Below, one piece after another: positions 15,013 to 51,743 of a stretch of 64,000 bases of DNA. How positions within the stretch are numbered: the stretch's first letter is position 1; each line of letters starts with the position of its first letter. Below the pieces are notes generated by a model that ran no database searches, was not told the origin of the DNA, and worked only from the letters and a program-made list of their open reading frames with translations. The position numbers and the translations under genes are program-made. This DNA is from an uncultured Nitrososphaerota archaeon (GTDB lineage: Archaea > Thermoproteota > Nitrososphaeria > Nitrososphaerales > CADDZS01), in contig CAWCYI010000006.1 in the NCBI GenBank assembly GCA_963799845.1, forward strand, positions 1,056,001-1,120,000, written 5' to 3'.

Positions 15013-16008
15013 ATGATATTCGGTTTTCATCCACTCACAGATTTCTTTTCGCCTAAAAGAATGCTCGAGGAAACGGTGGCGGCAGAAAGGTTTGGCTTCA
15101 GCGAGATTTTCTACGCTGATCACTTCCATCCTTGGACTGTTGCAGAAGGGACAACTTTTGCTTGGACGTTAATCGCCTCGGCAGCTGAAAGAACATCAAA
15201 GGTCAAGATCGGAACCGCGGTAACATGCCCGATGTTACGATACAACCCGGCGATCGTTGCGCAGGCTTTTGCAACTCTGGCTTCGACCTACGAAGAAAGA
15301 GTATTTCTCGGTGTGGGGACAGGAGAGGCATTGAATGAAGTTCCTGTCGGGTATGAATGGCCAAGTGGGAAGATCAGAATCGAGATGCTCGAAGAGGCCG
15401 TACAGATAATCAGATTGCTCTGGGCGAATGATTACGTGACATTCAAGGGAAATCATTACTCAATCAAAGATGCAAATCTTTTTACGAAGCCCTCAAGACC
15501 AATCCCTCTTTACATCTCTGCCCTGGGCCCAAAGTCCGCCTACCTTGCGGGAAAGCTGGGCGACGGCTGGATCACGCTAAACCTGCCCGAAGATCGAATA
15601 AAGCATACTTTGTTACCCAAATTCGAGCAAGGGTTCCAAGATAGATCAGATAATAAAGAATATCAAACAGGACAACGCCCACGAAAAATCGCTGAGATTG
15701 TTGTTTCCTATGATGACGATATCGACAAGGCGATCGAAGCTTGCAGACCTTTTGCTGGAACCTTTTCACCGAAGGTATTCCAAAATGAGTTGATAGATCC
15801 TCGCGAGATAAAGGCACTTGGAGATCAGGTCGACAAAAGAGCTATTGAAGAAAGAATGCTCGCGACTGATGGCGTCGAAAAAATAATCGCGACTGTTGAA
15901 AAATTCGAAAGACTCGGTTTTGACTGCGTCGAGGTGGCGAGCCTCAGCCCCGATCAGAACAGATTCATGAGCGTATTCAGAGAAAGAGTTGCATCACATT
16001 TCAATTGA
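15013..16008 (+). CDS. LLM-class, probably F420-dependent oxidoreductase (G6PDH-like)
   Basis: DHFHPW, GTAVTCPMLRYNPAIVAQAFATL and GVGTGEALNE. Confidence 0.88.
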   Translation: MIFGFHPLTDFFSPKRMLEETVAAERFGFSEIFYADHFHPWTVAEGTTFAWTLIASAAERTSKVKIGTAVTCPMLRYNPAIVAQAFATLASTYEERVFLGVGTGEALNEVPVGYEWPSGKIRIEMLEEAVQIIRLLWANDYVTFKGNHYSIKDANLFTKPSRPIPLYISALGPKSAYLAGKLGDGWITLNLPEDRIKHTLLPKFEQGFQDRSDNKEYQTGQRPRKIAEIVVSYDDDIDKAIEACRPFAGTFSPKVFQNELIDPREIKALGDQVDKRAIEERMLATDGVEKIIATVEKFERLGFDCVEVASLSPDQNRFMSVFRERVASHFN

Positions 16009-16038
16009 AGTGCGGTACGAATTTAGTTCGCTGCAAAA

Positions 16039-16395
16039 CTAGCTCATTAGCTTCTGCAAGCGCATCAGATCATCCATCGGCCCCTTAACTTTCAGCTTGC
16101 CGGTCATGTAAGCAGTCATTGGATTGGACGTTTTGTTCATGATACCTTCCATCAGGGAATTTGCGACAGTAATCACAATGTTCGCGTTTGGAAGACTCTT
16201 CTTCTCAACATTCGCGAGTTTTCCATCGTCAACAGTAAACACATAGTCCTCCTTGAGATCGGTGAATGAAAACTGCATCGTCTTGCTGAAACCTTTGAGT
16301 GATTCTTGAACTGAAGGATCAGCGAACCTTTCTTTCAATTTTGCCACTGATCCAGGCGCACTTCCGCTACTGGGGGTGGGAGATGTGGTTGACAT
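16039..16395 (-). CDS. SCP2 sterol/lipid-binding domain protein
   Basis: C-terminal NPMTAYMTGKLKVKGPMDDLMRL; start placed at ATG 16395, downstream of an AT-rich box. Confidence 0.8.
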   Translation of the reverse strand: MSTTSPTPSSGSAPGSVAKLKERFADPSVQESLKGFSKTMQFSFTDLKEDYVFTVDDGKLANVEKKSLPNANIVITVANSLMEGIMNKTSNPMTAYMTGKLKVKGPMDDLMRLQKLMS

Positions 16396-16874
16396 GGCTC
16401 TATCTGGTTCGCTATTCATGTTTAAGCTTATACCGAGACTAACTATCTGAGTTCGTACGTAACTATGGCAAATATCGAAAAGGATACATCTGGCAGTACA
16501 CGAGATAGTTGTCAACATGTCGAATGTACGAGATAGTTGGCGGTTTGTGATTATTTGTTAGTTAAAGCGTGTTCCGTACGAAACGTGACATTTTGATGAT
16601 TCATTTCAATCCAGAGATCCTTATCGTTTCTGAAGATAGGTGAAATCCGATCAATTTCGAATCTAGGATTGACAACTTCCTCTTAGTCGTAGTTAGCGCC
16701 ATTGGTCTACTAAGTTGACACAAATAGAGAAAAGCTGAGCGTGCGTCTAAACGTTTGGTGCAAATCTCTCCCGTGAAAATCTTCTATTGAAGAAGGAATA
16801 TTAAACATCATCAAGTCACTCCTGTCTGCCTGCTATTTTCCTTTTTTCTCCGATTGTGACGGCCAAGCATGCGA

Positions 16875-18041
16875 TCAAGATTCGTTGAGTACCTGCTCCA
16901 GTACGCTAACGTCCGATGAAAGGCTTTTGGCTAGCTCTGGAACGCTCTCTGGTAGTATCGCGTCTTTGATGACTCTTTGAGCATTGAAGGATGTTTGCCT
17001 CATCTTCTTCGCTGTCAGATACTTGTCCTCCTCGACGTACCTCTGCTTGAATGTAAGCATCTTCCAGACAATGCAGGCGAGTTTCCTTGCAGCATCAACC
17101 TGAGCCTCCTGAGGAGCTTTCCCCCTCTTGATGTGCTTCAGGTAGACTCTTTTGACAGCAGAATCCGTCTTGGCTTTCACGGCTCCACTCACTGCGCATG
17201 TTAGAGCGTACTTCAATATGACGTCGCCGTGCTTTACGTGTTCGTGGTGGGACTCACGCTCTCCACTGTTGTCAGCACCTGGAACGACTCCGGCATACGA
17301 GCAGAGATGTTTCTTTGTGGGGAACCTTGAAGCGTCTCCTATTCTTGCCTTGATGGCTACTGCGGTGAAAGCATTGATGCCAGGGTGACTGAACAGAAGC
17401 TGGCAGTCTTCGTCTGAGGCTGCCATCTTTGCAATCTCGGTCTCAACCTCCGTATGCTGGGTTGCATAGAACTTGAGCTCCGAAAGATGCAATGCGAGAG
17501 CCAGCCTGTCTTGCTTTGGAAGCTCTATCTCTCCGAGCTTTTGAAGACCTCCGTTACTGAACACGTCAGAGAATTCTGAGAACTCGCTCTGGACCATGTT
17601 TCTCTCCAGTAGAGTCTGGATCTGGTTCTTTACTCTCGATATCTTTGCGCCAATCTCTATCTGTTGGGTCACAAGAAAGCGCATGTCTTCTATGTACTGT
17701 GAGGGAACGTAGCACCTTCTCAAGTAGCCCAGTGCATCCTCCTTGACGATACGCTCGCAGTCTCTCTTATCGGTTTTCACAGATGCTTTCTTCTCTGGTG
17801 GCGCAACCATGTGAATCACGTGCTGGTTTGATGCGAAAGAAGAAATCATTCTCGTGACCGCCTTTCCAGTTGTGCTAGATTCGATGACAAATACAGATTT
17901 GTCCGGAATCTTTGCTAGCATCTCAGAGACTCCTGCCCTGCTCGTCTTGAAGACGAAGGATTGTATGGGTGACTCTTCTCCGTCCGCGAAGACCTGCGTG
18001 GTGCAGCTCTTCTTATGTGCGTCTATTCCGACTCTCGTCAT
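16875..18041 (-). CDS. IS110-family DEDD recombinase/transposase
   Basis: VGIDAHK, IESS and KTDKRD (DEDD RuvC); PGI..RF..SYAGVVP..NSG (catalytic Ser); AARKLA. Confidence 0.95.
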   Translation of the reverse strand: MTRVGIDAHKKSCTTQVFADGEESPIQSFVFKTSRAGVSEMLAKIPDKSVFVIESSTTGKAVTRMISSFASNQHVIHMVAPPEKKASVKTDKRDCERIVKEDALGYLRRCYVPSQYIEDMRFLVTQQIEIGAKISRVKNQIQTLLERNMVQSEFSEFSDVFSNGGLQKLGEIELPKQDRLALALHLSELKFYATQHTEVETEIAKMAASDEDCQLLFSHPGINAFTAVAIKARIGDASRFPTKKHLCSYAGVVPGADNSGERESHHEHVKHGDVILKYALTCAVSGAVKAKTDSAVKRVYLKHIKRGKAPQEAQVDAARKLACIVWKMLTFKQRYVEEDKYLTAKKMRQTSFNAQRVIKDAILPESVPELAKSLSSDVSVLEQVLNES

Positions 18042-18049
18042 TGGTTTCG

Positions 18050-18277
18050 ATTCATACTCCTATTGTTTGACTGGTTGTTTGCGTCATGGATCCCAGACCG
18101 ACAATCTCCCGTACGTCCATTATGGACAAGCGGGCCGGTCGTTTCGATCATCGTCAATTGTGACGATGACTGTGCAGCCATGCTGGGGAACATGCACAAG
18201 GCACAAGAGATTCGAAGGCTGCGGGGATCCATGACCACAACTCCAGCTGTCTCTTGCTGGAGGGGAGAGGCTAATCT
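18050..18277. ncRNA. Candidate IS110 bridge/seek RNA (structured non-coding end)
   Basis: 12-bp outer stem 18083-94/18224-35 enclosing several hairpins; internal-loop strands match both insertion junctions; transcribed strand unknown. Confidence 0.6.
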
Positions 18278-18360
18278 AAGATTTTCATGCCCGCTGGGAA
18301 TTCGGCGCACATCCCACGATTTACGCTCGAAAAAGTGGATTCTATGAACTCGTGATGGGT

Positions 18361-18379
18361 GCGAAGGGGATGGGATTTG
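18361..18379 (-). other. Degenerate tRNA 3'-end-like fragment (Ser-like)
   Basis: Minus strand CAAAT-CCCAT-CCCCTTC-GC resembles T-loop, T-stem, acceptor strand and discriminator; no 5' half. Confidence 0.35.
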
Positions 18380-18686
18380 CTCCTACTGTAGATTAGGATG
18401 GTAAATAACTATCAACGCTCTAAATGCAAAGAAGGAAGAACACCGGGCTAAAGTTTCTCGGAATTGAAGCCAAGGATCCTCGGTCCATGGTGTATCCAGA
18501 CCTCAAACTTTGAGCGACCTTAATAATAGGAACCAGAAAATTGGTTCTTCTCATCTATTTCTGTCTTGTTGCACTCGCTGGTTCTAGTCTTCAGAACAGC
18601 GTATGTGGAGAGAAGGAACGAATCCTCAGTGTTCTTGAGCCTAGAACTAAATAGTCAATTCAGAATTATTCCAAAACAAAGAAACC

Positions 18687-19130
18687 ATGCAAATCGCTAG
18701 AAGCTTGTTTATCGGAGTCGTGCTGACGGTTTTCGTAGCAGCATTCTTGGTCGGCATTGGGTTCACAGATAGTACCGTCCAGCAACAGACTACCTCTTTT
18801 ACTACAACTACAACCACGACTATGTTTGTGTCGGAAAAGCTCGATAATTCTAACATCTCGATAGTAAAGGAGATTCTAATAGAGCACGTGTTGACCAATG
18901 AAATTTGTGTGGCTAACCTCGAAAATACAACCGTTACCACTACGCTATTTTCGGCAACTGGCAACTCAGAAAATAGTCTCTACGTTACGTTGTCAACGAT
19001 AACCATTTCCTATGACTCCACAAGCACAATCTACGAGAATGCCACCATCATCTCCAATGGCAGTACTTGCACGGAAATCAATCCCTACTACAACGTGTCA
19101 ACGACCAATTCAAATTGCGAGTGTGTTTGA
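18687..19130 (+). CDS. Membrane-anchored Thr-rich hypothetical protein
   Basis: N-terminal TM helix, poly-Thr stretch, several NxS/T sequons, C-terminal cysteines. Confidence 0.65.
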   Translation: MQIARSLFIGVVLTVFVAAFLVGIGFTDSTVQQQTTSFTTTTTTTMFVSEKLDNSNISIVKEILIEHVLTNEICVANLENTTVTTTLFSATGNSENSLYVTLSTITISYDSTSTIYENATIISNGSTCTEINPYYNVSTTNSNCECV

Positions 19131-51056: not shown

Positions 51057-51743
51057 AATATTGAGACATCTAAGATGCCTAATTAACTAACATGGAATGA
51101 CGCTAGTGCGGTCAAATAGATTGTAGGTGACGAAGGAAAGCCAAGATGAAAAGATTTTCGAAACCGAATAAGTCTCGTCGTGATCTGAGTACTAATCCAC
51201 CGGCCTCCGTCCTTGCTTGACTGACGAGTTAGATCGCCAGAGTATGTCGATGTGACGATCGTGTTTCCTGATCTTTGGAAAGACGGAGATGACAGTTGCA
51301 AGAAAGTGTGGAATGGTTAGAGAGAGCTTACGAGCAATATCAAGTTATTTTCCAAGAATCAATTCGGAACATTATTTCGAAGATCTTCACCCAGATCCCA
51401 GATTTTGCCTCGTGTGTGTGATACGCTCCGAACGACCGATCACTCGGGATTTTGGAGATTTTTGCGTTCCAAATGGGATTAGGTCACCTGCACCCGAAAC
51501 CCGGCTTAACCGAATCCCTAGGGATTCGAGACTCATGAATCCACAAATGTGGATTCCTGTGAAATAGGTCAGAGCCTCTGGAGATTCGGACTGAAACTGG
51601 TCCGGAACATCTTTTTTGGACAAGCTCGAAGAATCAAAGATGCGATGGGTTCGAATCGGATGGTCTTCGAACCCTATTTAGATGCCAATGGTAAAATCAC
51701 CGAGTTTTTCTGATATCTTATCAAGAATCGATGGGTAAAGGGA

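Follow-up and report, generated by a model that had tools for sequence, protein, structure and literature searches.

The window analyzed here is a 64,000-nucleotide stretch of the genome of an uncultured Nitrososphaerota archaeon (GenBank assembly GCA_963799845.1, contig CAWCYI010000006.1, positions 1,056,001 to 1,120,000). It contains an insertion sequence of the IS110 family with a recombinase gene, a long noncoding end upstream of this gene and a shorter noncoding end downstream of it. The long noncoding end is predicted to encode a bridge RNA with two internal loops, denoted A and B, which would guide the recombinase to its target and to the ends of the element, respectively. The minus strand of the window is here called the recombinase sense, and the plus strand, which bears the CT dinucleotide proposed as the crossover core, is called the guide frame. 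The features of the element outside the RNA are as follows.

16770..18293, minus strand: IS110-family insertion sequence, 1524 bp without the core, with bounds taken from the flank alignment and genes on the minus strand

16875..18041, minus strand: recombinase open reading frame, 388 amino acids in the window copy

16768..16769, plus strand: left copy of the predicted CT core, the only letters that the two junctions share when CCCG is counted as part of the element

18294..18295, plus strand: right copy of the predicted CT core, defined in the same way

16770..16773, plus strand: terminal CCCG of the RNA-distal end and start of RD', complementary to the CGGG of the loop B 3' strand

18290..18293, plus strand: terminal CCCG of the RNA-proximal end and end of LD', with the same letters as the loop B 5' strand

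16774..16783, plus strand: left arm of the subterminal inverted repeat, TGAAAATCTT, read directly; TGAAAAT-type ends are conserved family-wide

18278..18287, plus strand: right arm of the subterminal inverted repeat, AAGATTTTCA, read directly

The product of the open reading frame matches the Pfam families DEDD_Tnp_IS110 (PF01548, E value 1.3e-8) and Transposase_20 (PF02371, E value 2.6e-16) as well as the NCBIfam model NF033542, 'IS110 family RNA-guided transposase' (174.6 bits; cutoff 140), which bears out the assignment to an archaeal IS110-family element made in an initial annotation of the window. In an alignment of 27 homologs, D7, D94 and G260 are invariant, and E54 and D91 are each present in 26. 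Position 259 is occupied by serine in 24 homologs and by threonine in three, within a motif of the form G-(V/L)-V-P-x4-(S/T)-G that has valine in 22 and leucine in 5 at its second position. By analogy with the IS621 residues described in PMC11208158, the catalytic residues would be D7, E54, D91, D94 and S/T259-G260. The serine motif resembles the IS1111 logo presented in PMC11187229, a likeness that is not decisive for the placement of the protein in either group. Sequence similarity to proteins in the PDB is weak, with IS621 and ISCro4 found at E values of about 0.01-0.02 (0.017 in the phmmer comparison with a PDB chain), and BLASTP aligns the protein with that of ISEc11 over residues 198-335 only (27% identity, E value 7e-14). 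With 409 amino acids in its full-length form, the recombinase is about 60-70 residues longer than the IS1111 transposases (330-350 residues).

The host assembly (4.6 Mb in 9 contigs) contains four copies of the element, 99-100% identical and located in different flanks. When the four are aligned together with their flanks, the similarity ends within about 12 nt on either side, and the remaining flank letters show a weak consensus. Such near-identical copies in different surroundings make the element look mobile and active. The window copy is distinguished from the other copies by a 1-nt insertion at 16892 and a TC/CT swap at 17615-16; the soil-metagenome contigs from both runs carry the version without the 16892 insertion. 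The 10-bp subterminal repeats of the window copy begin 4 and 6 nt inside the core. Among the 30 downstream ends recovered from the wider set of loci described below, 28 read GATTTTCA and the remaining two GGTTTTCA. At one further locus (L040/L120), the far end consists of GATTTTCA followed by TTTGG... in place of CGGGAG; this end, which may be degraded or recombined, was excluded from the counts of downstream flanks.

The comparative set of loci was assembled from a protein search that gave 170 matches among 3252 candidates, many of them 50-86% identical to the query; 27 were aligned. The DNA of the relatives was taken from 80 of 91 confirmed metagenome stretches, 14 loci on genome contigs and additional loci from related genomes. 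A filter for the motifs of the element end and the conserved loop was passed by 52 loci, from which three spurious ones (L027, L036 and L103), three copies from the same genome (L022, L029 and L032) and three exact duplicates (L081, L119 and L120) were dropped. The remaining 43 distinct RNA sequences are the basis of all counts of fold, strand and covariation given below. Of 61 related genomes, 11 have an IS110-family protein match at an E value of 1e-20 or lower, mostly to other subfamilies.

Within the long noncoding end and at the flanks, the following features are recognized, in the order of the RNA and then of the target.

18083..18235, minus strand: core of the predicted bridge RNA, closed by stem P1 (18223-35 with 18083-95), from RNAalifold and pair counts

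18205..18216, minus strand: 5' strand of the predicted target-binding loop, UUCGAAUCUCUU, with the letters of the left target half and CT (plus strand), pairing with the opposite strand

18180..18191, minus strand: 3' strand of the predicted target-binding loop, GUUCCCCAGCAU, complementary to plus-strand CT and the right target half, followed by two handshake positions

18148..18169, minus strand: lineage-specific extra hairpin between the loop domains, in place of which other loci have 0-12 nt

18129..18137, minus strand: 5' strand of the predicted donor-binding loop, CGGCCCGCU, with the last 5 nt of the RNA-proximal end (GCCCG) and CT in plus-strand reading

18103..18113, minus strand: 3' strand of the predicted donor-binding loop, UACGGGAGAUU, complementary to CT and CCCGTG of the distal end, the last pair being a wobble

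16757..16767, plus strand: left target half-site (LT' in the guide frame), matching the loop A 5' strand in the four genomic copies

18296..18302, plus strand: right target half-site (RT'), opposite UUCCCC of loop A, with the sequence GGGGA in three copies and GGGAA in that of the window

In the consensus fold, a closing stem (P1) encloses two domains, one with internal loop A framed by helices P2 and P3 and the other with internal loop B framed by P4 and P5. RNAalifold places 35 pairs on the 43 sequences, 21 of them with compensatory changes. Standard pairs account for 97.2% of the cells, compared with 89.0% when columns are shuffled, a value reached in none of 500 shuffles; 111 cells are changed on both sides (27.6 in shuffles), and when the partners are slid by 1-3 columns, only 28-44% of the cells remain paired. 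The pair types also distinguish between the strands. There are 136 G·U cells against 13 A·C cells (93 against 13 after removal of one invariant U·G pair), distributed over 26 and 8 pairs, respectively. In an RNA made from the plus strand, each of these G·U pairs would become an A·C mismatch; the RNA is therefore assigned to the minus strand, that is, to the recombinase sense. The combined counts argue for a real and conserved bridge RNA in this orientation, contrary to the plus-strand RNA, antisense to the recombinase, that the initial annotation had proposed. The distance from the end of the RNA to the ATG at 18041 is 42 nt, and the RNA lies upstream of the recombinase in all 43 homologs and in the distant matches discussed below. 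A scan of positions 16000-19000 against Rfam (E value up to 10) returned two chance-level matches only. The conserved sequence GAAAA-TCTTAGAT could be a candidate promoter with a transcription factor B recognition element (BRE) and a TATA box.

Much of what the initial annotation recorded in this region withstands the comparison. The terminal CCCG, the 10-bp inverted repeats and a 12-bp stem (18083-94 with 18224-35) are all in place, as are the identity of TCTCCCGT (18105-12) with 16767-74 and that of AGCGGGC (18129-35) with the reverse complement of 18289-95. These features exceed chance: the helices are kept by compensatory changes, and conservation of the loop letters goes along with that of the element ends. 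The proposal that the long noncoding end holds a bridge RNA is upheld by the fold conserved in 43 sequences. The annotated hairpins also lie at the positions given for them; of these, the ones at 18148-69 and 18241-62 are complete only in the window, L012 and L039, and the former has a partial form in L013 and L063. The helix GACCG/CGGTC, which had been thought to close the loop now denoted B, turned out to be an alternative register confined to this copy; the conserved helix is CGAC/GTCG (18138-41 with 18099-102), which shows compensatory changes in 2 of the 43 sequences (pair 154/193).

Loop A is the variable loop of the family. The letters of its 3' strand are those of the upstream flank, and the reverse complement of its 5' strand gives the downstream flank. 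Covariation with the flanks was scored at variable positions only, and the downstream score was the best of five registers, for real and shuffled pairs alike. The upstream flanks of the 43 loci match the guides at 170 of 215 positions, compared with a mean of 69.1 for shuffled pairs, and 24 representatives with clearly different guides give 94 of 120 (shuffled mean 35.6). For the downstream flank, 188 of 210 positions match in the 30 loci with the far end found (shuffled mean 104.7) and 123 of 133 in 19 representatives (64.5). The observed match was reached by none of 5000 shuffles in each of these four tests. The guides of the four copies in the host genome fit a plus-strand site of the approximate form TTCGAATCT-CT-GGGGA; each site deviates by 1-3 mismatches or wobbles. 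Beyond the core, two positions of the 3' strand follow the element instead of the target: column 108 corresponds to element nucleotide 1 in 40 of the 43 loci and column 109 to nucleotide 2 in 26. With both of its strands covarying with the flanks, loop A (18205-18216 with 18180-18191) appears to be the true target-binding loop of the RNA. In the initial annotation this region (18180-18216) was listed only as a hairpin, and TCTCCCGCT was taken to be the target; the homologs reside in unrelated sequences that share CT alone.

Some observations concern the target itself. The window copy is located in a short intergenic near-palindrome, outside any transposase gene; a scan for tRNA genes around the four copies, of which the near-palindromic target might have been a part, found none. 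A degenerate pattern of the empty site has 16 matches with up to two mismatches in the genome (7 forward and 9 reverse, one palindromic site being listed on both strands), compared with one match of a reversed control. Such target-like unoccupied sites are found at 51511-51528 of the window, at G000 C4:489563, C4:530556 and C6:1746389 and elsewhere (L139-L153). Among them are CGAATCCCTAGGGATTCG, a perfect palindrome within the window, and CGGGCCTCTGGGGATTCG, which occurs three times; some share more flanking similarity with the occupied sites. These matches suggest that the natural target is a short repeated genomic element.

Loop B is the loop that had initially been interpreted as target-binding. 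Among the homologs, it is kept in unrelated flanks while the other loop covaries with them, and its letters follow the element ends and CT, with a single handshake nucleotide following the target. Specifically, its strands read CCCGCU in 27 and ACGGGAG in 34 of the 43 loci, and the junctions read AGCGGG upstream in 29 of 43 and CGGGAG downstream in 23 of 30. The sole variable position of the 3' strand (C/T) agrees with the element end in all 30 loci for which both ends are available. Column 158 forms a Watson-Crick pair with the adjacent element nucleotide in 30 of the 43 loci and a wobble in another 9; the shuffled mean for Watson-Crick pairs is 21.1, and 18 of 5000 shuffles reach the observed value. 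After the core complement, the 3' strand has one handshake nucleotide facing the target, which is identical to the first nucleotide of the target in 29 of 30 loci (shuffled mean 14.1, reached in 0 of 5000 shuffles) and in 19 of 19 representatives; PMC11208158 describes the same behavior for the donor-loop handshake guide of IS621. The correspondence extends across three subfamilies with different termini (CGGGY/ACGGG, TCAACG/CAGAGG and TTAATA/CAGAGA), in each of which loop B fits the respective ends; within the TCAACG/CAGAGG subfamily, it follows the end from locus to locus (CAAC in L125, CAGC in L107 and TACC in L128). Together, these matches mark loop B (18103-18137) as the probable donor-binding loop, complementary in its two strands to the CCCG-containing ends of its own element and to the core.

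The extent of the guides bears on the identity of the core. Both strands of loop A cover precisely the AG that adjoins CGGG (CT in the guide frame) and stop short of CGGG itself. The most direct evidence comes from a subclade of elements (L055-L058, L073, L075, L076, L080/L081 and L096) that are inserted in genes for rve-type (DDE) transposases, at the codons HPQ|TNGK. The upstream flank of L057 (L057:1-513) encodes ...HILCRVNHPQ and ends at position 102 of the 102 of the Pfam rve profile, and the flank that follows CGGG and AG (L057:1928-2020) encodes TNGKLERF.... The interrupted gene reads HPQ|TNGK only with a two-nucleotide core, and hence CGGG belongs to the element. In the distant subfamilies, the letters at both CGGG positions are unrelated and the same AG adjoins them. 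The crossover core would thus be CT, as in IS621, and CCCG, which the initial annotation had taken for the core, would be the terminal 4 nt of each element end. In accordance with a trait of the IS110 family, insertion occurs without target duplication beyond the short core, as seen in the flanks of L057 and in the CT on both sides of the window copy.

A 4-nt CCCG/CGGG core, which was initially assumed in this analysis as well and then overturned by the extent of the guides, the rve gene of L057 and the distant subfamilies, deserves consideration as an alternative. Donor and target would have this core in common, with loop B acting as a loop for the junction or core and the AG/CU dinucleotides beside its core serving as handshake guides to a conserved AG-CGGG-AG target. 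CCCG is indeed present at both junctions, and AG flanks it on both sides in most loci (29 of 43 and 23 of 30). However, the target loop would then leave the core wholly uncovered, and the first position differs between the two junctions at some loci, for example L052 and L054, with TGGG downstream and CGGG upstream. Moreover, the two positions are unrelated in the Thermoplasmata-type subfamily (CAAC and GAGG, with the same AG adjoining), and the interrupted rve gene would read HPQRETNGK rather than HPQTNGK. When the genome was searched for empty sites that fit a pattern built on this model, no convincing one was recovered. A 4-nt core is very unlikely.

The distribution of the RNA was assessed with a covariance model of the P1-enclosed structure, denoted R1. 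In the host genome, R1 matches exactly the four copies of the element, at 18080-18240 in the window copy, and finds nothing in the downstream noncoding end, which is about 100 nt long (16774-16874); no match was obtained in the 150 other genomes sampled from the phylum that were searched. On GC-rich archaeal contigs, R1 matches immediately precede, in the same orientation, recombinase genes whose products are only about 30% identical to that of the window, with E values of about 1e-10 to 1e-11 for L108, L099 and L101 and about 1e-5 to 1e-6 for L125, L109, L104, L107 and L128; the contigs of L125 and L128 are labelled Thermoplasmata. The ends of these distant subfamilies are TTAATA.../...CAGAGA and TCAACG.../...CAGAGG, and their subterminal repeats are 12-15 bp long. 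The RNA family thereby appears to be much wider than the Nitrososphaerota clade.

Other observations touch on this distribution. The same genome encodes at least three more IS110-family recombinases, 25-29% identical (G000 C4:1350503-1351216, C6:337478-338506 and C4:1287433-1288461); since these genes lack an R1 match, they are assigned to different subfamilies, with RNAs of their own. On a Halobellus plasmid (L137:744-882, NZ_CP134948.1), R1 gives a borderline match (13.9 bits, E value about 0.08-0.09), which was not counted. It immediately precedes the gene of a haloarchaeal IS110-family transposase with 29% identity to the window protein; the same layout may exist in haloarchaea.

The interpretation that best accounts for these data, and that we consider highly probable, is that a bridge RNA encoded directly upstream of the recombinase gene and on the same strand guides the recombinase, with loop A as the target-binding loop, loop B as the donor-binding loop and CT as the core. 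In this scheme, the 5' strand of loop A would pair with one DNA strand of the left target half and CT, and the 3' strand with the other DNA strand of CT and the right target half. Loop B would pair likewise with the abutted ends of the element, ...CATGCCCG-CT-CCCGTGAAAA.... Next to the core, one or two nucleotides of each loop would face the other DNA partner, as in IS621, and recombination at the shared CT would leave no duplication beyond CT. The fold, the strand, the two sets of guide matches with their covariation and the two-nucleotide core are directly visible in the compared sequences. Production of the RNA, its binding to the recombinase, its action on a circular intermediate and the chemistry of strand exchange are extrapolated from IS621, ISEc11 and ISEc21.

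Several observations weigh against this interpretation. Single-sequence folding of a 161-nt segment does not distinguish the strands (z -4.92 for minus and -4.61 for plus); for a 254-nt segment, the values are -4.1 and -2.5, a difference that is not decisive. The target of the window copy itself has 2-3 mismatches to the guides; the fit of guide and flank is poor at L059 upstream (1 of 8) and at L058 downstream (4 of 11); L052 and L062 fit only with a register shift of 1-2 nt; and a recognizable downstream end is missing in 13 of the 43 loci. On the donor side, column 158 is mismatched in 4 of 43 loci, and in 8 of 43 an A·C mismatch results from CCCA in the 5' strand of loop B facing CGGG at the element end. 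The donor guides are also short (5-6 nt and the core), and the 10-bp subterminal repeats therefore probably contribute to the recognition of the ends. The C-terminal tail of the window copy is frameshifted, with the insertion at 16892 replacing a 25-residue basic tail that is present in the 409-residue proteins of the other copies. Neither the circular junction nor an empty site was found in two DNA runs, which did show the flanks of other copies.

The transcript data must be read with similar caution. One assembled contig of 169 nt from a peat metatranscriptome, at least 99% identical, covers 18065-18233 and nothing else of the noncoding end; its strand and ends cannot be read, and it could represent carried-over DNA. 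A second peat metatranscriptome run gave a 198-nt contig within the open reading frame, also at least 99% identical. The lack of RNA cover over other parts of the element is not evidence of their silence. The 169-nt contig provides a weak hint that the bridge RNA is expressed.

A different explanation of the conserved structure is that it is a cis-acting 5' leader of the recombinase mRNA, involved in translation or stability and without any guiding role, the specificity being encoded in the protein. The location of the structure directly upstream of the ribosome-binding site and the absence of an oligo-T terminator between the RNA and the open reading frame are compatible with a leader. A leader, however, would give no reason for two loop strands to covary with opposite DNA strands on the two sides of the element, or for a second loop to track the element termini across subfamilies. 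As the sole function of the structure, a leader role is accordingly improbable to a high degree, whereas the structure may play such a role in addition to guiding. The scheme of the initial annotation, with 18103-18137 as a target loop for TCTCCCGCT, a CCCG core and a plus-strand RNA antisense to the recombinase, is next to untenable: its 8-nt and 7-nt junction matches are real and its plus-strand order fits the IS621 convention for a target loop, but the ratio of G·U to A·C cells (136 to 13) points to the minus strand, the homologs keep loop B in unrelated flanks that covary with loop A, and only a two-nucleotide core restores the rve gene of L057.

With the bridge RNA placed in recombinase sense and loop B read as the donor loop, the element can be compared with the systems for which published descriptions exist, to the extent that these descriptions give the relevant details. 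In IS621, left guides pair with the bottom strand and right guides with the top strand, the left guide lies 5' of the right one, and along the 3' strand of a loop, the core complement separates the right guide from the handshake guide that comes after it (PMC11208160; PMC11208158). The element described here resembles IS621 (Durrant et al., 2024; Hiraizumi et al., 2024) in its DEDD and Tnp recombinase, the upstream location of the RNA, the CT core, the order of target loop and donor loop, the strand pairing scheme, the cover of the core by both strands, the handshake positions that follow the core on the 3' strands and the target of about 14-16 nt. When read in the guide frame, the model appears to fit the IS621 rules nucleotide for nucleotide. 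It differs from IS621 in that the top strand, defined by CT, runs antisense to the genes for the RNA and the recombinase, so that the guide order is reversed relative to the genes; in the long closing stem around both loop domains; in subterminal repeats of 10 bp rather than 2-3 bp; in donor guides of 5-6 nt; in the recombinase, which is about 409 residues long and weakly similar; and in the archaeal host.

The reversed order finds its counterpart in the IS1111 group. Siddiquee et al. (PMC11187229) describe a reversal of guide order between IS1111-type and IS110-type seekRNAs. In the present element, with both flanks read in recombinase sense, the downstream flank is complementary to the 5' strand of loop A, and the upstream flank carries the letters of its 3' strand. 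This is the IS1111 order and not that of the IS110 group, in which the bottom-strand guide is located 5'. The difficulty with guide order raised in the initial annotation disappears if the loop singled out there serves for the donor and the guides are arranged as in IS1111-type elements. Similarity to the IS1111-type elements ISEc11, ISPa11 and ISKpn4 (PMC11187229) further includes the length of the subterminal repeats, the S/T-G motif after G-(V/L)-V-P and the location of the top-strand-complementary segment 5' of the bottom-strand-complementary one, with strands named by the direction of the transposase. The 10-bp repeat of the window falls within the range of subterminal inverted repeats in the IS1111 group (7-17 bp) and, like the 12-15 bp repeats of the distant subfamilies, is unlike the short (2-3 bp) or absent repeats of the IS110 group.

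The location of the RNA follows the other group. The RNA is upstream of the recombinase, as in the IS110 group and not downstream as in IS1111 elements. According to PMC11187229, IS1111 members have subterminal repeats and, with few exceptions, a downstream noncoding region; the exceptions are ISMtsp17, with an upstream region, and ISHvo10 and ISAcp5, with regions on both sides. Judging by the position of the noncoding region, which is what the sections consulted report for them, these three are close in layout to the element analyzed here, being IS1111-like with an upstream or double noncoding region, and ISHvo10 is haloarchaeal. Many IS1111 members have a donor multi-loop (Durrant et al., PMC11208160), whereas the donor site here is a simple internal loop. 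A further parallel is provided by ISEc21 (PMC11187229), which targets the DDE region of IS3-family genes, just as the rve subclade homes into a catalytic motif of a transposase; the motif in the rve subclade is the E region and not the second D, and the host domain and the guide order are different. On these comparisons, the element appears to be a hybrid: its guide order and repeats are of the IS1111 type, its RNA is positioned as in IS110 elements, and its donor site is an internal loop. The mixed layout, in the form of IS1111-like subterminal repeats combined with an upstream noncoding end, had been recognized in the initial annotation.

It is conceivable, although rather doubtful, that the clade as a whole, which comprises Nitrososphaerota, Bathyarchaeia-labelled and Thermoplasmata contigs and recombinases down to about 30% identity, represents a third, uncharacterized layout within the IS110 family. 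Under this tentative reading, such a layout would be defined by an RNA beside the 'left-donor' end and antisense to the guide frame, by both loops being enclosed in a single closing stem and by minimal donor guides, and the long subterminal repeats may also act as an archaeal promoter (BRE/TATA) for the RNA. If this is the case, the lineage might stand between the IS110 and IS1111 arrangements in evolution. As an archaeal RNA-guided IS110 recombinase whose guide RNA has been mapped, it might also provide a test case for the proposed link between IS110 recombinases and Nop5.

Among the papers covered by a literature search, none linking bridge RNAs with Nitrososphaerota was found; a large 2026 preprint that surveys the intergenic regions adjacent to IS110 recombinases (10.64898/2026.10.21.760802) may already contain this family without describing it. 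If the present interpretation is correct, the bridge RNA of an archaeal IS110-family clade has been mapped in full from natural covariation alone, and the logic of IS621, with handshake pairing and a CT core, would hold both in archaea and in an element with mixed IS110 and IS1111 features. For annotation, this would mean that CCCG 'direct repeats' of this kind are element ends and not target duplications, and that a conserved loop matching both junctions is a donor loop. More generally, the findings bear on the divergence of IS110 and IS1111, and the clade would offer compact and naturally diverse pairs of guides and targets that are testable as programmable recombinases.

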